Source of the DNA: Chlamydiota bacterium
Lineage (GTDB): Bacteria; Auribacterota; Tritonobacteria; UBA1439
Assembly (NCBI GenBank): GCA_037133055.1
Contig: JBAXOY010000017.1
Coordinates: forward strand, 1-36,647
Length of the DNA: 36,647 bases
Reading direction: 5' to 3'
Part shown: one piece after another, positions 8,480 through 36,631 of the stretch
How positions within the stretch are numbered: position 1 is the first letter of the stretch
How the letters are laid out: every line of letters begins with the position of its first letter
Program-made: the position numbers and the translations under genes
Notes under the pieces: model-generated
The model's input: only the letters and a program-made list of their open reading frames with translations
Told to the model about the DNA's origin: nothing
Databases searched by the model: none

Positions 8480-9864
8480 GCGCTATCCTTTTCATGGGCG
8501 CCGGGCCTCTCCCGTTCGAGAACACGCGCCGTTTCTCCGCCCCCGGCGGCAGGACATGGCAGCTCATACGCCCACTGCTGAAGGATGGTCATCGCGTGCT
8601 GCTCCTCGCGCTCTATCCACGGGACAGCGAGCCCGTCCCCGCCGGGGCCGCCTCGCCCGAGAAGGGCCTCACGTGCAGGCCGATCACCCGGGACACCCTG
8701 CGCGCGCCCGGCGCCCTTCCGTCCCTGCTCGGCGAGTTCAGGCCGGACGCCCTCGTCGCCACCGGGGCGGAGTCCTGCTGCATTGCCGCCGGCGCGAGCG
8801 GGGAACTCCCCTTCTGGGCCGATGTGTTCGGGGACCTGCTCGCCGAGGCCCAGGCGAAAGCGGCCCGGTGCGAAGACGATCACTGGGTCGCGTCGTTCTG
8901 GAGCCGGTTCAGGCCGGTCCTGCTGCGGGGCGACCGGTTCTCCGCAGTCTCGACGCCCCAGAAATATGCGCTCCTCGGCGAGCTCGCGACGCAGGGGCGC
9001 GTGAACGCGGCGAACGCGGGCACCGAGCTCGTGCACGTCGTCCACAGCGCCGTTCCCGGGATTCCCTACCGGCGCGAAAGCCGCGCGGTCCGCGGGAGCA
9101 AGGTCGGCGAAGGGGATTTCGTCGTGCTCTGGAGCGGGGGATACAACACCTGGGCCGATACCGAAACCCTTTTCCTCGGCCTCGAGTACGCCATGGAACG
9201 GAACCCCGCCGTCAAATTTGTCTCGACCGGCGGGGAGATCCGGGACCACGACGAGGTGACCTACCCGCGCTTTCTCGACCGCATCCGCGGGTCCCCGCAC
9301 CGGGAGCGCTACGTGATGGAGGGCTGGGTCCCCCGGGAGAGGGTGAAGGATTACTTCCTCGATGCGGACGTCGGCATAAACGTGGACCGATTCCTCTACG
9401 AGGGGGTGCTGGGGTGCCGCACCCGCCTGCTGGACTGGGCCGCCGCGGGCCTCCCCGTCCTCACCACGGTGCTCTGCGAGCTCACCGTGACGCTCGATAG
9501 GGAAGGGCTCGTGACCGCATTCCCGATCGGCGATCCGGCCGCCCTGGGGAAAAGCATCCTCTCGCTCGCGGGAAACCGGGGTTCCTTGCGCGCCATGGGA
9601 CAGAGGTTCCGGGAATATGTCTTTTCCCGTTTCACCTATGAGGCGACGACCGGCCCGATCAGGCAATGGGCGGCGGCGCCTTTCGTGGTGGACCATCGCA
9701 CGAGCATGGACAGTCTCTCCCCGCTCCGGTTCGACGAGAGCCCGGAAGAACTCAAGGCGAAGCTCGACGAGCTCAGGGCGCTCAAGGCATCGCGGGCCTA
9801 CCGCCTGTTCCTCGCATTGACCGGCGGGGCCGCCCGGAGCGGGCGGCGGGGGATGATCCGATGA
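8476..9864 (+). CDS. GT4-like glycosyltransferase
   Basis: VLWSGGYNTWAD...GWVP...DADVGIN...RTRLLDWAAAGLPVLTT GT-B C-domain; ATGA coupling at both ends. Confidence 0.85.
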   Translation: MSAILFMGAGPLPFENTRRFSAPGGRTWQLIRPLLKDGHRVLLLALYPRDSEPVPAGAASPEKGLTCRPITRDTLRAPGALPSLLGEFRPDALVATGAESCCIAAGASGELPFWADVFGDLLAEAQAKAARCEDDHWVASFWSRFRPVLLRGDRFSAVSTPQKYALLGELATQGRVNAANAGTELVHVVHSAVPGIPYRRESRAVRGSKVGEGDFVVLWSGGYNTWADTETLFLGLEYAMERNPAVKFVSTGGEIRDHDEVTYPRFLDRIRGSPHRERYVMEGWVPRERVKDYFLDADVGINVDRFLYEGVLGCRTRLLDWAAAGLPVLTTVLCELTVTLDREGLVTAFPIGDPAALGKSILSLAGNRGSLRAMGQRFREYVFSRFTYEATTGPIRQWAAAPFVVDHRTSMDSLSPLRFDESPEELKAKLDELRALKASRAYRLFLALTGGAARSGRRGMIR

Positions 9865-11339
9865 GCGCCCCGCTCGTCTATGTCATCGTGTTGAGCTGGA
9901 ACGGGATGGAGCACCTCCCCGTGTGCCTTGCGTCCCTGAAACGGCAGTCCTACCCCAATTTCAGGGTGCTGCTCGTGGACAACGGCTCGACGGACGGGAG
10001 CCGGTCCTACGTGCGCCGGGAGCACCCGGGGGTCGAGCTGATCGAGAACGGTCGCAACCTCGGCTTCGCGGAGGGGAACAACCGCGGCATGCGCCTCGCG
10101 ATGGAGCGGGGGGCGGAGTTCGTCATCCTCCTGAACAACGACACCGAGTGCGACGCGGATCTCGTCGCCGCGCTCGTCGCGGCGGCGATGACGGACCCGT
10201 CGGTAGGCGCCTGCGCCGCCAAGCTGCTCTTCTTCGACGCCCGCACAGTCCTGAACGGCATCGGCACGGAGGTTACCATGCTCGGCTGCGGCGGGGACCG
10301 GGGGATGGGCGAGAAGGACGAGGGGCAGTACAACCGCATCGAGGAGGTGTTCGGGGTCTCCGGGGGGGCGTGCCTCCTGAGGAGCGCCGCCCTGCGGAAG
10401 GTCGGCCTGTTCGAGCCGGGCTACTTCATCTTCCTCGAGGACATAGACCTCTCGTGGCGGATACGGCTGGCGGGATACAGGATTCTTGCCGTTCCCGGTT
10501 CGGTGGTGTACCACAAGTTCAACGCGACTATGGGGAGCTTCAGCGCGTTCAGGATCTTCCTCAACGAGAAGAACAGGATCAGGAACGTCCTCAAGAACTT
10601 CTCCGCGCGGACGCTCCGGACCGTCCTCCCCCGGATGCTGCGCTACGACACGAAGCTCGTCCGCGACATCGTCGCCGGGGGCGGCGCGCGCTCCTTCGCC
10701 CGCGCCATGATCTACCCCCGGGCCTACGCATGGAACCTGCTCCACCTGCCGGGACTCCTCGTCATGCGGAGGCGGGTGCGCGGATTCCGGGCGGTCTCCG
10801 ACGAGGAGATGCTGCGATTCATTACCCCCGTCTACGGGCAGAGCCACCGGATCACGCCCGACTACCCGGTGCACGACAGGCGGCTCTACGAGCGGTCTTC
10901 AGCGAAGCCCCCGCGCATCGTCATGGGGGAAAGCGATACCGCCTCCCTCGGCGCGGGCTGGGCGAACCTTTACCGCGCCGGGCCGGCCGGCGAAAAAGCC
11001 AGGCGCCTCTCCACGGACGCATGGTTCTTCCTGCCCCGCTCTCCCGGCGCGGCCGAGTTTTTGGAGATTGCATTCGTGGGATGCCCCGTGAAGCCCCTCT
11101 CGGGCGAGGTGTTCGCGAACGGAGCGCGGGTGGGACCGTTCGCGCTCGACAAAGACGAGCGCCGGACCATCCGCTTCCCCCTCGGGGTCAGACCTCGACT
11201 ATTGACAGATATTCAAGGCGTCTGGGAATGCCGGATCGTCACGAAGGAGGGATGGCGACAGAACGACGATTTCGGGAACGGCGACTATCGTCTCCTCGGC
11301 CCGAGTGTCGGCACAATCACGCTGAGCGGCACATCATAG
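9861..11339 (+). CDS. GT2 glycosyltransferase with C-terminal accessory domain
   Basis: VIVLSWNG, VDNGSTDGS, NLGFAEGNN, LLNNDT, FLEDIDLSWR; about 150-aa C-terminal extension; ATG 9861 overlaps the upstream TGA. Confidence 0.92.
   Translation: MSAPLVYVIVLSWNGMEHLPVCLASLKRQSYPNFRVLLVDNGSTDGSRSYVRREHPGVELIENGRNLGFAEGNNRGMRLAMERGAEFVILLNNDTECDADLVAALVAAAMTDPSVGACAAKLLFFDARTVLNGIGTEVTMLGCGGDRGMGEKDEGQYNRIEEVFGVSGGACLLRSAALRKVGLFEPGYFIFLEDIDLSWRIRLAGYRILAVPGSVVYHKFNATMGSFSAFRIFLNEKNRIRNVLKNFSARTLRTVLPRMLRYDTKLVRDIVAGGGARSFARAMIYPRAYAWNLLHLPGLLVMRRRVRGFRAVSDEEMLRFITPVYGQSHRITPDYPVHDRRLYERSSAKPPRIVMGESDTASLGAGWANLYRAGPAGEKARRLSTDAWFFLPRSPGAAEFLEIAFVGCPVKPLSGEVFANGARVGPFALDKDERRTIRFPLGVRPRLLTDIQGVWECRIVTKEGWRQNDDFGNGDYRLLGPSVGTITLSGTS
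11176..11206 (+). repeat. Intragenic copy of the transposase end motif
   Basis: TCCCCCTCGGGGTCAGACCTCGACTATTGAC is identical to 11357..11387. Confidence 0.95.
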
Positions 11340-11340
11340 T

Positions 11341-11372
11341 TCCCCCTCGGGGTCAGTCCCCCTCGGGGTCAG
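11341..11372 (+). repeat. 16-bp tandem duplication at the left end of the element
   Basis: TCCCCCTCGGGGTCAG x2 (11341-11356, 11357-11372). Confidence 0.95.
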
Positions 11373-11382
11373 ACCTCGACTA

Positions 11383-11411
11383 TTGACTAAGATGGTTGGC
11401 GATGATACGGT
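11383..11411 (+). promoter_or_regulatory. Transposase promoter (leaderless)
   Basis: TTGACT (11383-11388, inside the left IR), 17 bp, TGa-TACGGT (11406-11411), then 6 nt to ATG 11418; no SD. Confidence 0.6.
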
Positions 11412-11417
11412 TTAGAC

Positions 11418-12425
11418 ATGGCAAGACCGCTGAGAATTGAATATCCGGGTGCATGGTACCACGTCACAAGCCGCGGGAACGAGCGGGGTGAGATATTCCA
11501 GGACGATAGAGATAGGAAGAGGTTTCTCCAGACATTAGAAGAGAGTATTGAGCGCTACAAGGTGGAAGTGCATTGCTATGTGCTGATGAGCAATCACTTC
11601 CATTTTTTATTGAGGACGCTCGAGGCCAACCTGAGCAGGTTCATGCAGCGATTCAACACGGCCTACACGGCATATTACAATGTGCGGCATCACAGGGCGG
11701 GACATCTATATCAGGGGAGATTCAAGGCGATCGTGGTGGAAGCGGATGAGTATCTGAAGGAACTGAGCCGGTATCTGCACTTGAATCCCGTGCGGCTGAA
11801 GAAGTACAAAGAGCTGACGACAGAGGATAAGGCCAAAATACTCAAAGGGTATAGATGGAGCAGCCTGCCGGGATATATGGGATTAATGAAGCGGGATGAA
11901 TTCGTAACATACGGAACGGTGTTGGAATACATGGGAGGAGACACCCGGGAGGGGCAGAGGCGGCATGGTGATTTTGTTGCGGTGGGGTTGCGGAAAGAGA
12001 TGAAGAATCCGCTCGCGGAAGCGCACGCAGGGGCGGTACTGGGGACGGAGAGCTTCATAGAATGGGTGAGGAAAACGTTTATCGATGGGCGGGAGTGGGT
12101 GCGGAAGGAACAGCCGCAAGTCAGCATGCTGAGGGGCGTGATTCCCGTGCGGGAGATTGCGCGGGTGGTGGGTGAGGAGTACGGGGTGCGGGGGGAGGAG
12201 TTGTTGAAGGCACGCTCGCCACACAGAGAGGCACGACGGGTGCTTATCGAGATGAGTTATCGGTTGAACATGAGTGGGAAATCGCTTCAGGAACTGGGGC
12301 GCGAGTTGGGCAGGATAGGCGGGGATGCGGTAGCGCATACGCATGAGCGCATGGAGAAACAGATGTCGAAGGATAGTAGATTGTTGAAGCGCGTGGAACG
12401 AGTCCTGGACAAACTTAGTCAATAG
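11418..12425 (+). CDS. REP-associated-type tyrosine transposase (Y1_Tnp, HUH) with C-terminal DnaA-domain-IV-like HTH
   Basis: MARPLRIEYPGAWYHVTSRGN, YVLMSNHFHFL (HUH), GHLYQGRFK, LSRYLHLNPVR (catalytic Tyr), YRWSS; C-term EIARVVGEEYGV...EARR...SLQELGRELG resembles the DnaA C-terminal HTH. Confidence 0.92.
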   Translation: MARPLRIEYPGAWYHVTSRGNERGEIFQDDRDRKRFLQTLEESIERYKVEVHCYVLMSNHFHFLLRTLEANLSRFMQRFNTAYTAYYNVRHHRAGHLYQGRFKAIVVEADEYLKELSRYLHLNPVRLKKYKELTTEDKAKILKGYRWSSLPGYMGLMKRDEFVTYGTVLEYMGGDTREGQRRHGDFVAVGLRKEMKNPLAEAHAGAVLGTESFIEWVRKTFIDGREWVRKEQPQVSMLRGVIPVREIARVVGEEYGVRGEELLKARSPHREARRVLIEMSYRLNMSGKSLQELGRELGRIGGDAVAHTHERMEKQMSKDSRLLKRVERVLDKLSQ

Positions 12426-12482
12426 TCGAGGTCTGACCCCGTTTTCTCGGGGGTCATGCGCAACCCGAAGTCCGCCGCCCGG

Positions 12483-13661
12483 TCAGGAGAAATCGAGGTC
12501 CATCACGAGGGAGGGGTTGCACTTCCGCTTGATGAAGGCGCACACCCTCTTCAGCTCTTCGGGGCTCAGGGAGAGCCCGATTTTTTCCGCCTCCTTCGCC
12601 AGCCCGCTCGCGCTGCCCGCGAGCAGCGCCCGGTCGAGGTTCTCGCCGTGCTCGCAGGGCGCGTAGCAGGTGAGGTCGCAGGGGTTGATGTAGAGGGAGT
12701 GGATGCTTTCACATGCCACGCGGGCCTTGTCGCGCTTCCCGCCGTCCCTGTAGCCCGGGATAAAGTAGTTGCGCGAAAACCAGTCCGGCTTGCAGTAGGT
12801 CCATGCCCCGTCCGGCATGAGCATGGCGGTGAAGAACTGCCGCCAGCAGTTGGACCTCAACTTGCCGCCGCCCTTGTTCAAACCGCTGAACGCGCTCACG
12901 CCCCTCACCTCGACCCGGATGTCTTTGTAGTCCCGCTCCCACTCCCTGCTTTTCGCGACGAAATCCTCCCACACCTCTGGCCGCGAGGCGGGCGACAGGG
13001 GCTTGTGGTACGGGAATACCGGTTTGACCTCGACGTTCATATCGAGCACGCTCTTCCTCCTGATCTCCCTCAGCCGGTCGAAGAGCTCGGGGAGACGCGC
13101 GTAGGAGTTCACGGTGGCCGTGGGGACGGCCATGATCCTTCGAAAGCGGCTCCCGGACGGGTAGCGGTGCAGGGCGATCTTTTCGATCGTGGCCAGCACC
13201 TCGTCCCCGTCGATACCACGCTGGGCCTTGTTGACCTCCCCCACCCCGTCGATGCTGGCGGCGATGATGTTCGCATAGGGGAGGATGTCGGTGAGGAGCT
13301 CGGGGCGGCCGGTGAGGTTCGAGTTGAACTCGACCTGCATCCCCTCCCCGCATCCCTCCCGCAGCCGCCGCATGATCGCGACAATATCCGGAACCAGGGT
13401 CGGCTCTCCGCCGGAGATGCACAGGTGCTTCGGCTTGACGCGGGAGAGCTCGACGAGCGCCTTATCGTAGTCCGGCGCGACCGGCGGGAGGGCGGCATCC
13501 TGCTCGTTGAAGCAGTAGATGCACTTCTGGTTGCACGCGAAATGGATATGCCACGTGACGCACCAGTAAAATCTCGGGGAACCTTCCCTATAGAGTCCGA
13601 AAAGAGCCCTCACTGATATACCCCTGTCTCGTGTTATTTCTGTCCGCGGGTACCGCCCCAT
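12483..13661 (-). CDS. Radical SAM protein (twitch-like C-terminus)
   Basis: CNQKCIYC, ISGGEP, SIDG; C-terminal CWRQF...YC...CDLTCYAPC. Confidence 0.88.
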   Translation of the reverse strand: MGRYPRTEITRDRGISVRALFGLYREGSPRFYWCVTWHIHFACNQKCIYCFNEQDAALPPVAPDYDKALVELSRVKPKHLCISGGEPTLVPDIVAIMRRLREGCGEGMQVEFNSNLTGRPELLTDILPYANIIAASIDGVGEVNKAQRGIDGDEVLATIEKIALHRYPSGSRFRRIMAVPTATVNSYARLPELFDRLREIRRKSVLDMNVEVKPVFPYHKPLSPASRPEVWEDFVAKSREWERDYKDIRVEVRGVSAFSGLNKGGGKLRSNCWRQFFTAMLMPDGAWTYCKPDWFSRNYFIPGYRDGGKRDKARVACESIHSLYINPCDLTCYAPCEHGENLDRALLAGSASGLAKEAEKIGLSLSPEELKRVCAFIKRKCNPSLVMDLDFS

Positions 13662-19198: not shown

Positions 19199-20617
19199 AT
19201 GAAACCGCTCGTATACGTCATCGTCATCAACTGGAACGGGATCGACCATCTCCCCTCGTGCCTCGGCTCGCTCGCCCGGCTCTCCTACGGCAACGCGAGA
19301 GTCGTGCTGGTGGACAACGCCTCCACGGACGGGAGCCGGGACTACGTGCGGACGCATTTCCCGGAGGTGACGCTGATCGAGAACCGGACGAACGCGGGCT
19401 TCGCCGCCGGCAACAACCGCGGGATGGCGTATGCGATGGAACAGGGGGCGGAGTTCATCGCCCTCCTCAACAACGACATGGAGGTGGACCCTGACTGGAT
19501 CACCGCGCTCGTCGACGCCGCCGGCGAAGATGCCTCCGTCGGGGCGTGCGCGCCCACGCTCCTCTATTTCCACAATCGCGACATCGTCCAGGGAATCGGC
19601 GTCTGCCTCAACAGGATCGCCCTCACGTGGGACTGCCTGAACGGGCGCTACGACACCCCCGAGCTCGCCGTCGCCCCCGAGGTCATCGCCGCGTGCGGCG
19701 GGGCGTTCTTCGTGCGGGCCGCGGCGCTCAGGGACGCGGGCCTGTTCGACCCGGCGTATTTCATCTACCTGGAGGACGTGGACCTCAGCCTGCGGATCCG
19801 GGCGCGGGGATACCGGATCATCACGGCTCCCGCGGCGCGCGCGTACCACAAGGCGTCGGCCACCATGCGGGAGAATTCGCCCCGCAAGAATTACCTGACC
19901 CTGCGGAACCGGATCATGCTCATCCTCAAATGCTTCCCCGCCCCCATGATCCCCGGCGCGCTCGCCGGCACCCTGCGCTGGGAATGCGGGGTTGCGCGGG
20001 CCAACTACTGGAGGGGGGATTCCCGGCTGATCGCCACGCAGGCCCGCGCAATCCTCGCCGCCCTCCTCCGTCTCCCCCGCCTTATCGCCGCGAGGAGGAG
20101 GCTCGGCCCCATGACGCACGAGCGCGTGTGGCGCCTCCTGAACCCAGACACGGCGCCCCCCCGCGTCCGCCTGCCGTCGCCCCCCGCGGCCGGGTGGGAT
20201 CGCCCGGCGGAAACAGAGATCGCGCTCGGCTCGCCCGGCGCCCGCCTCGGGCCCGGGTGGTACCTGATGTACGACGCGGGCGACCGCGACTACCGCCGCT
20301 TTGCCCGCGAGGCCTCGCTCGCCCTGCGCATGCCGCGGGGGGCGGAGGCATCGCTCCGGATCACCGTCGGCAACGACCACGCCGCGCTGAAACGGATCGG
20401 CCTTCGCGTGTTCGCGGGCGGGGGGGAGATCGGGCGCGTGACGCCCGGCTCAGGCTGGAACGTCTACACCTTCCCGCTCGTGAACGCAGGGCCGGGCCCC
20501 GTGACCGTAACGCTCAAAGCGGACGACCTCTACCGCGCCGAGTCCACCGGCGAACCCACGGACCTGAGCTTCAAGGTGCGGGCGGCCGGATTGAGGGCGC
20601 CCGGAGACACGAGGTGA
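19199..20617 (+). CDS. GT2 glycosyltransferase with C-terminal accessory domain (paralog of 9861..11339)
   Basis: MKPLVYVIVINWNGIDHLP...VDNASTDGSR...GNNRGM...LLNND...YLEDVDLSLR, colinear with the 9861 gene. Confidence 0.92.
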   Translation: MKPLVYVIVINWNGIDHLPSCLGSLARLSYGNARVVLVDNASTDGSRDYVRTHFPEVTLIENRTNAGFAAGNNRGMAYAMEQGAEFIALLNNDMEVDPDWITALVDAAGEDASVGACAPTLLYFHNRDIVQGIGVCLNRIALTWDCLNGRYDTPELAVAPEVIAACGGAFFVRAAALRDAGLFDPAYFIYLEDVDLSLRIRARGYRIITAPAARAYHKASATMRENSPRKNYLTLRNRIMLILKCFPAPMIPGALAGTLRWECGVARANYWRGDSRLIATQARAILAALLRLPRLIAARRRLGPMTHERVWRLLNPDTAPPRVRLPSPPAAGWDRPAETEIALGSPGARLGPGWYLMYDAGDRDYRRFAREASLALRMPRGAEASLRITVGNDHAALKRIGLRVFAGGGEIGRVTPGSGWNVYTFPLVNAGPGPVTVTLKADDLYRAESTGEPTDLSFKVRAAGLRAPGDTR

Positions 20618-36570: not shown

Positions 36571-36631
36571 TCAGGTGATGAGCCAGCGCTCTTGGGGTCA
36601 GACCTTAACTATTAACTGGCTCATCACCTGA
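36571..36631. repeat. Perfect 16-bp hairpin whose loop carries a transposase end motif
   Basis: TCAGGTGATGAGCCAG (36571-36586) / CTGGCTCATCACCTGA (36616-36631); GGGGTCAGACCTTAACTATTAAC at 36594-36616. Confidence 0.9.

Follow-up and report, generated by a model that had tools for sequence, protein, structure and literature searches.

The window analysed here is the complete contig C17 (JBAXOY010000017.1; 36,647 nucleotides) of a 2.99-Mb genome bin of 191 contigs (G000), and our subject is a glycosyltransferase (GT) gene of the GT2 family together with the tyrosine transposase element that lies directly behind it. We consider it probable, with some reserve, that a solo copy of the element's terminal inverted repeat (TIR) stands in frame in a loop of the GT and that the left end of the element likely acquired its outer flank from the GT gene when the direct repeat copies recombined locally. 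On this reading the arrangement results from the activity of a selfish element and does not serve to remodel the enzyme.

The 31-mer TCCCCCTCGGGGTCAGACCTCGACTATTGAC occurs at 11176-11206 and, in identical form, at 11357-11387, exactly as the original prediction had it, and the first of these copies does lie inside the GT open reading frame (ORF; 9861-11339), where it is read FPL-GVRPRLLT-D. The repeated sequence is composite. Its outer part belongs to flank X (TTCCCCCTC, 11175-11183, + strand), which is made of the native GT codons Phe-Pro-Leu, and the following 23 nt (L1, 11184-11206, + strand) are the solo TIR copy, which encodes in frame GVRPRLLT (residues 442-449) and is matched in 23/23 nt by 11365-11387 and, on the opposite strand, by 12418-12440. 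This inverted copy, missed by the earlier note, is perfect over 24 nt (12418-12441) and pairs with the GT copy as inverted repeat I2. When the 23-nt core was searched with up to 3 mismatches, 4 matches were found in the window and none in any of 100 shuffles; a copy of another subfamily, with 3 mismatches, is located at the contig end (36594-36616, + strand). Directly after the GT stop codon TAG, and in tandem with the next unit, there is a partial copy of 17 nt (TTCCCCCTCGGGGTCAG, 11340-11356, + strand) consisting of flank X and the first 8 nt of the repeat. The sequence TCCCCCTC precedes both downstream copies (at 11341-11348 and 11357-11364), so that the claim of a common flank stands with the qualification that the first downstream copy is merely this partial one. 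The direct repeats do enclose the C-terminal end of the GT, as proposed, although the segment between them counts 43 codons plus TAG (11208-11339, + strand) rather than 44 codons.

The gene behind these repeats (11418-12425, + strand) encodes P0002, a 335-aa Y1 (HUH) tyrosine transposase with an intact ORF, which matched PF01797 with 50.9 bits (cut-off 23; E 2.1e-13) and shows, by inspection, an HFH motif at residues 60-62 and the conserved tyrosine in HLYQGRF. Its C-terminus resembles domain IV of DnaA (TIGR00362 at residues 242-333, E 1.9e-5; PDB 8btg_A at 240-333, E 1.9e-6), and for the N-terminal Y1 domain a phmmer search of PDB gave no solved relative at E ≤0.01. The transposase ORF is bracketed by a 33-nt inverted repeat, I1, which is 94% complementary and is formed by the left TIR (LE2, 11364-11396) and the right TIR (RE, 12409-12441, - strand), the latter overlapping the transposase stop codon. 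Together with the preceding TCCCCCTC, the left end occupies 11357-11396 (+ strand); its repeat starts about 53 nt ahead of the start codon, a spacing also found at 13 of 30 related loci. The terminal repeats open with GGGGTCAG at 11184, at 11365 and, on the opposite strand, at 12440, which fits the consensus GGGGWSAS, and the repeat alone folds like its shuffles (z -0.16), being non-palindromic and devoid of both a hairpin and the GTAG tag. The TIRs around the Y1 ORF match the motif in the GT, and the proposal that this motif is the end of the neighbouring HUH transposase element was thus borne out. A scan of 11000-12700 for promoters and terminators yielded nothing beyond what shuffles gave.

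By its sequence features, that is, a Y1 domain, TIRs, the GGGGWSAS opening and a DnaA_C-like domain, the element is a TIRtron and its transposase a TIR-associated tyrosine transposase (TIRYT), an already described class. TIRtrons comprise tyrosine transposases with terminal inverted repeats that share GGGGWSAS, the repeats belonging to families whose members occur singly, as dimers or in groups (Di Nocera et al. 2013, PMC3733652). The portions of Quentin et al. (2018, PMC6006769) used here give this consensus too and place most TIRYTs in subclass 2.1 of the TnpA_REP-like HUH proteins, with Bac_DnaA_C or helix-turn-helix C-termini. The window element resembles them in its transposase of ~335 aa with a Bac_DnaA_C-like end, in its non-palindromic GGGG[AT][CG]A[CG] TIRs at a fixed distance from the ORF, and in its moderately abundant repeat families, with several paralogous transposases per genome that each have their own repeat variant; it is unlike them in that one copy lies in frame inside a neighbouring gene and in that the left end carries host coding bases instead of the outer module.

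Two related classes were considered and rejected. In IS200/IS605 insertion sequences (IS608-type), the ends are subterminal hairpins and not TIRs, insertion takes place 3' of a fixed tetra- or pentanucleotide, and whole copies are near-identical. The window element shares with them the Y1 HUH catalytic domain and the expectation that the left-end flank matters for cleavage, but all three of those hallmarks fail here: the transposase paralogues are only 44-68% identical, TIRs are present and the flanks are variable apart from T[CT]. In the REPIN-RAYT systems of Bertels and Rainey, a tyrosine transposase present as a single copy per variant is reportedly flanked by a repeat thought to be spread by it. 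Inverted doublets with short spacers occur in our genome too (contigs C20, C65 and C68), but a classical RAYT/REPtron was discarded, given a score of 68.9 bits for P0002 with the NCBIfam RAYT model NF047646 (below its cut-off of 80), the lack of a GTAG-tagged palindrome and of a hairpin, and the four full-length paralogues in this one genome.

The GT itself (P0003, 492 aa; 9861-11339, + strand) is intact, matches PF00535 (E 6e-21) and ends in a C-terminal beta-sandwich domain. Full-length orthologues were found in the related genomes G001 (contig C226; same genus, 73% identity over residues 1-489) and G003 (contig C167; same family, 49%), and the protein databases supplied P0004 (83%), P0005 (77-78%), P0006 (73-74%) and P0007 (72%, G001 type). 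In all close orthologues, one strand ends in FPL or HPL and the next begins with WECRI. The loop between them has 8 residues in P0005 (SREIPGDD), P0006 (SAEIPGDD) and P0007 (PPGGAAED), 12 in P0003 (GVRPRLLTDIQG) and 15 in P0004 (PPNGVRPLLFTDSQG). At the DNA level, G001 reads CCC CTC CCC CCG GGC GGC GCG GCG GAA GAT ATA TGG at the loop, with CAT CCC CTC in the place of flank X, and the window reads CCC CTC GGG GTC AGA CCT CGA CTA TTG ACA GAT ATT CAA GGC GTC TGG. Flank X is represented by FPL or HPL in P0005, P0006 and P0007, which have no repeat, and also in the paralogue at 19199-20617, which does read FPLVNAGP at the matching site, as had been noted, and which BLASTP aligned with P0003 up to residue 425 only (43% identity). 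The repeat is likewise absent from G001, which also lacks the transposase, and P0004 carries a similar peptide. An AlphaFold2 model built on a 14-row alignment (mean pLDDT 80.3, pTM 0.69) gave an all-beta C-terminal domain in which the predicted strands 434-441 and 454-461 flank residues 442-453, where pLDDT falls locally to 58. These data agree with the proposal that the motif begins right after FPL and lengthens a probable loop with the frame kept. The insertion is, on this model, an 8-residue addition to a predicted variable loop, and we read it as putatively tolerated selfish DNA rather than an enzyme-editing device; for the GT it would be an ordinary event, with no sign of programmed variation.

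The segment beyond the insertion, the last 43 GT codons plus TAG, runs from WECRI to GNGDYRLLGPSV and is conserved in all close orthologues. Positions 11223-11315 aligned with G001 gaplessly at 75/93 nt (80.6%), next to 80.2% for 9861-11183, and over residues 454-483 the identity to P0003 was 93% for P0004, 83% for P0006, 80% for P0007 and 77% for P0005. P0004 is the closest relative on either side of the motif and the ranking of the relatives does not change, so that the orthologue alignment revealed no phylogenetic breakpoint at the motif; the last 9 residues (GTITLSGTS, 11310-11336) match P0005 in 8/9 and the sister P0004 in 2/9 positions, a stretch too short for calling a breakpoint. No second copy of the 133-nt segment 11207-11339 exists in the genome. 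By all these alignments the C-terminal segment is native and vertically inherited, a proper domain end as had been supposed, and the suggestion that a C-terminal cassette was swapped fails on its collinearity with the G001 orthologue, on the constant ranking and on the single copy. The hand count of about 58% GC for this segment was accurate (57.9% computed, against 66.1% for the whole gene), and a value as low was found in 8.5% of the 133-nt windows of the same gene. GC at third codon positions (GC3) was 0.74 in the last 39 codons and 0.91 in the rest, and an equal or larger 3' drop occurred in 5.9% of 1089 long high-GC3 ORFs. The GC drop is real yet modest and was not taken as a sign of foreign origin. 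We also observed that GC3 falls over the last ~140 GT codons (0.79-0.87 from about codon 350) and reaches its minimum in the last ~75 (0.64-0.74, the gene having 0.91).

The orthologue P0004 informs about the age of the insertion. In a maximum-likelihood tree, P0003 and P0004 were sisters with support 93/95 and branch lengths of 0.10 and 0.13. At the same loop P0004 reads GVRPLLFTD, which aligns without gaps with GVRPRLLTD and differs in 2/9 residues; each difference could arise by one base change, at repeat positions 14 and 21, where the repeat subfamilies differ. P0004 is known as a protein only, and its contig (2312 nt) was not among the 9 loci retrieved by a metagenome scan for GT relatives. 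As the two sisters share the insertion site and the following xQG residues, a single insertion is the more parsimonious history, and the repeat probably entered the GT before P0003 and P0004 split. The GT copy could instead be recent and lineage-specific, copied through a template switch from the left end next to it, with the P0004 peptide as a parallel event. The identity of L1 to both local ends speaks for this, as does the location of the two P0004 differences at subfamily-variable positions, but parsimony points to the shared insertion and we hold the recent copy to be unlikely; it would depart from the explanation preferred here in timing only.

The origin of the flank could be followed by comparison with G001, in which the GT stop is succeeded by ~165 nt and then by a converging gene, with no transposase between them and with a post-stop sequence that differs from that of the window. 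The converging ORF beside the GT in the window (12483-13661, - strand) is 82.2% identical in nucleotides to G001 over 1124 nt, and the sequence bordering the right terminal repeat is homologous to the intergenic region of G001, including a CGGGGG(C)TC that pairs with the repeat tip. The element therefore sits in the intergenic space, its left end 1 base past the GT stop. The bases TTC CCC CTC must be host bases, since FPL is encoded in repeat-free orthologues and CCC CTC is present in G001, and yet (T)TCCCCC recurs before the partial copy and before the transposase left end. Among the bases adjoining the repeat, only the nearest two were enriched (T[CT] in 20/43 copies, compared with 10.9% of random sites), which makes the further 6-7 bases, (T)TCCCCC, locus-specific. 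Most related elements carry, on both sides, an A-rich outer module, GAAAA..TC, outside GGGG; in the window element GAGAAAAC is found at the right end, and TCCCCCTC takes the place of the module at the left. As TTCCCCC corresponds to GT codons, the junction of flank and repeat would have arisen inside the GT and been copied to the left end later, and we infer from these comparisons a transfer of the flank to that end.

Other histories do not account for this order. A first insertion of the element within the GT loop that left the C-terminus on the far side of the right end was rejected because this end abuts the G001-homologous intergenic sequence; a plain tandem duplication of a 165- or 181-nt unit, because the C-terminal segment is present once; an inversion with its breakpoints in the GT copy and the right end, because it would invert the C-terminus; and an import of the whole 31-mer, FPL included, by the element, because FPL already exists in repeat-free orthologues. 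The shared flank might also reflect target choice and not copying, if two independent insertions had occurred at similar C-rich targets (..CCCCCTC). Pyrimidine dinucleotides do stand directly before 20/43 copies, CCCCC was found within 15 nt upstream of 4/43 (2.2% in controls) and the C65 copy is flanked by GTCCCCCTTT. However, three of these four CCCCC cases belong to the GT/transposase locus, the fourth being that of C65, and with CCCC as the query 7/43 copies were positive (controls 8%), 3 of the 7 again at this locus. Copies of the same subfamily have unrelated flanks (GGCGGTTC on C58, GAGAAAAC at the right end), G001 has a different sequence past the GT stop, and 8-9 identical flank bases at exactly the same offset are not expected from a loose preference. 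We regard target choice as decidedly improbable.

The explanation that we favour, an in-frame solo copy followed by flank transfer, would unfold as follows. The mobility of the element itself, or else templated copying, would have brought the repeat into the GT loop. The repeat would have survived by landing in one of its two stop-free forward frames, at a site tolerant of extra residues. The junction of flank and repeat created in the GT would later have been copied to the transposase left end, which lacks the A-rich outer module. This could have happened at a nicked left end, through break repair or template switching with the copy 181 nt upstream as the template, or else the transposase may have cleaved the two direct copies at a set distance 5' of GGGG, after which they were cross-joined and the product was resolved within the 23-nt homology. 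The 16-nt tandem stutter at 11341-11372 would be a scar of the same end-proximal processing.

Several points weigh against this explanation. No single simple event gives the order flank-repeat, C-terminus, flank-partial, flank-repeat, transposase, and the flank transfer requires two joins, or else a conversion tract ending 9 nt outside the homology. An action of the transposase on the GT-internal copy and on the left end has to be presumed. An old insertion should have drifted, and L1 is still identical in 23/23 nt to both local element ends, so that either a later homogenisation or an independent recent insertion must be assumed. The C-runs within 15 nt upstream of 7/43 copies (controls 8%) suggest that target preference could add to the shared flank, and this history does not account for the lower GC3 between the repeats (0.74 vs 0.91, 5.9th percentile).

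The original prediction had gone further and proposed that the HUH enzyme edits neighbouring genes. Its mildest form, the deposition of an end repeat in the GT, was upheld; swapping and excision were not. For the latter, public sequencing data were used: 20 runs contained part of the stretch, and contigs were compared from four runs of four studies (X1, X3, X4 and X5). These contigs were built with k=31 and lack rare variants, and they break exactly at the repeat, for which reason they do not prove the order of the pieces. X1 and X4 each gave the pieces 10600-11205, 11177-11386 and 11358-11585 with 0 differences, the middle piece of X3 ended at 11342 (a 166-nt version), and the matches listed for X5 included 11075-11205 and 11176-11386. 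The depth of the middle piece and of the GT piece was 9.34 and 8.75 in X1, 7.4 and 6.75 in X3, 6.74 and 5.96 in X4, and 3.82 and 3.9 in X5. The contigs of the four runs contained no form joined or deleted between the repeats, a weak test as such contigs miss rare variants, and the equal depth argues against a sizeable deleted form or multicopy circles.

A cassette switch, in which the transposase would excise, reinsert or swap the 44-codon cassette via the direct copies and so render the GT switchable or diversifiable, with glycan variation as the outcome, has several features of the locus in its favour. Perfect 31-nt direct repeats enclose precisely the final 43 codons together with the stop, the GT copy is joined with the right end in the perfect pair I2, the transposase ORF is intact with its HFH motif and conserved tyrosine recognised by inspection, the frame would stay open for 8 more codons if the stretch between the repeats were deleted, and GC3 is lower in the cassette than in the remaining gene. 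In shufflons and phase-variable hsdS genes, alternative cassettes are exchanged between inverted repeats within the coding sequence and populations are mixed. The GT locus is like them in that repeats bracket the 3' end of a surface-related gene with a recombinase-like gene adjoining, but it has one cassette, direct repeats and no alternative form in the data seen. Moreover, an alternative cassette was found nowhere in the genome, no phylogenetic breakpoint coincides with the motif, the four runs showed no joined form and equal unitig depth, a second upstream copy within 400 nt was present in 1/30 related loci, which does not suggest a conserved design, and an unrelated membrane protein uses a different frame of the repeat. 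The cassette switch is therefore very unlikely, and a dedicated glycan-diversification mechanism is not supported, the repeat being translated in different frames in two genes.

A more far-reaching version, to which we assign an equally slim chance, is that the GT-internal copy is a live alternative left end, cut by the transposase and thereby kept identical to the ends of the element, so that the GT has an on/off switch. In that case a 181-nt circle (the repeat plus 43 codons) would be excised, or a 1.26-kb unit (11184-12441) mobilised; the GT would toggle between its full-length form and a truncated form of 457 aa, and this would be the first observed TIRYT activity on a natural substrate. 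Finally, an assembly artefact, in which the duplication or the order of the pieces was made by assembling repeated 31-mers in a metagenome bin, is barely credible: the genome is a bin of 191 contigs and the public k=31 contigs break at the repeat and leave the order unproven, but the repeat/C-terminus and the stop/flank/partial/full-repeat junctions both lie inside one 210-nt unitig, which had 0 differences in the runs of three independent studies (and a 166-nt version in the fourth) and a depth matching that of the GT unitig, and the GT frame is intact with a conserved C-terminus.

A genome scan for in-frame copies elsewhere, which the original prediction had called for, yielded one further supported case. 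With the thresholds used, 9/43 copies lay inside spanning ORFs, and homologues supported two of them, the GT copy and C119:164-186; the coding candidates on C41, C42, C62, C88, C90 and C94 were dismissed by eye, being Arg/Pro/Gly-rich or overlapping a known gene, and C168 was outside this check. The C119 copy (L059/L062) is of another subfamily and is read QGQTSTIH in a loop of P0123, a conserved multi-pass membrane protein with a weak DIE2/ALG10-like Pfam hint (E 0.069). The loop is 9 residues shorter and without the repeat in the tandem paralogue (C119:1593-2837) and in the G001 orthologue, the DNA going from 30 to 57 nt. Of the forward frames of the repeat only two are free of stops, and the GT and C119 copies use exactly these two, one each, which fits selection on random insertions (stop-free frames, tolerant loops) and not a peptide-writing device. 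Just past the repeat loop, ~85 nt of C119:250-340 are 100% identical to C119:1840-1930, the paralogues being 75% identical overall, which suggests gene conversion between them.

Short repeats in frame within genes have precedents. According to the parts of PMC3733652 used here, in-frame intragenic repeats comprise REPs of the GTAG and CGTC types, in Opitutus terrae among other species, and the Rickettsia palindromic elements (RPEs), and its authors hold such inserts to be tolerated rather than functional. The GT copy resembles these cases as a short dispersed repeat in frame in a conserved gene, which adds few residues, is absent from orthologues and is seemingly tolerated. It differs from them in being a 23-nt non-palindromic end that encodes 8 aa, where theirs are palindromic hairpins often encoding 20-30 aa, and in having the mobilising gene directly downstream. 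In the main-text passages covered, we found no published TIRYT end repeat in a gene and no host flank taken up by a TIRYT end. The locus is a new example of two known things, a TIRYT element and an in-frame repeat, with the proposed flank transfer and the stutter as unusual local detail.

Across the genome, the repeat core was found 29 times with up to 3 mismatches (0 for a reversed-pattern control) and 43 times with a looser threshold. An IUPAC pattern gave 36 copies in this genome, 1 in G001 and 0 in G002, both of the same genus, and 0-36 across eight genomes of the family. The copies are organised as singles, inverted doublets and arrays and form several sequence subfamilies. Four full-length transposases were present in the genome, on C17, C88 (68% identity), C11 (44%) and C64 (43%), and relatives at E ≤1e-60 were detected in 18/79 genomes searched in the phylum. 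A repeat of the same type stood on at least one side of the gene in 15/30 fetched transposase loci and on both sides in 11/30; the remaining 15/30, mostly below 60% identity, did not fit the repeat pattern used. Only the locus in the window (1/30) showed another direct copy up to 400 nt upstream with host coding sequence in between. A scan of genome contigs for the repeat followed by AGA found 5 loci (4 in one metagenome-assembled genome and 1 in an Endomicrobiales one), none of them in a glycosyltransferase.

The stutter in the window consists of the 16-nt unit TCCCCCTCGGGGTCAG, present twice in tandem at 11341-11372 with 0 mismatches. A strict test for such stutters was positive in 4/43 copies and in 28/5000 random sites; looser ones were found on C88, C41, C28 and C49 and, in other genomes, at L076 and L080. 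In G003 and G007, left ends have tandem duplications of 45-50 nt or paired direct copies that share the outer module. The stutters may be scars of nicking and repair at the cleavage sites of the transposase. We noticed that they combine 8-10 outer bases with the initial 4-8 nt of the repeat, with further cases at C88:4960-5005, C90, C168:205-240, C3, L105 and L107.

In the portions of PMC3733652 and PMC6006769 used here, TIRYTs are described by comparative genomics only, with no cleavage sites, targets or mode of spreading established. The locus is a natural record of events at a TIRYT end, with a solo repeat kept in a working gene, host bases in the left end and recurrent stutters. Its scars point to an action of the enzyme, or of nick repair, about 9 nt outside and 6-8 nt inside GGGGTCAG; their positions make a simple oligonucleotide cleavage assay well defined, and the detail may help to map TIRYT cutting.

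Some further observations concern individual ends and copies. At the right end of the window element, the RE tip and the host flank form a small hairpin, GACCCCG-TTTTCT-CGGGGGTC (12435-12455, + strand), with a weak fold (-6.9 kcal/mol, z -1.2). The element-free G001 (L031) has CGGGGGCTC at the place homologous to the outer arm CGGGGGTC, 6 nt from the RE tip GACCCCG, and the element may have landed beside a host stretch complementary to its own tip. In several related ends, a C-run and then an A-rich spacer come ahead of GGGG. The closest paralogous element (C88:4950-6100, L061/L088; 68%) begins immediately behind the stop codon TAG of the preceding gene and shows three stuttered outer units; the family may favour left ends that adjoin stop codons. 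On C168 (71-256, L060), three direct repeat copies lie within 190 nt, two of them trailed by the same 40 nt and with no transposase gene nearby; this cluster looks like a non-autonomous array. At 36571-36631 of the window, a copy of the CTTAACTATTAAC subfamily is located in the loop of a 16-bp perfect hairpin made by its flanks (-19.5 kcal/mol, z -5.0). Contigs C17 and C95 both terminate in the sequence that follows this copy, which places the assembly break there within a larger repeated element.

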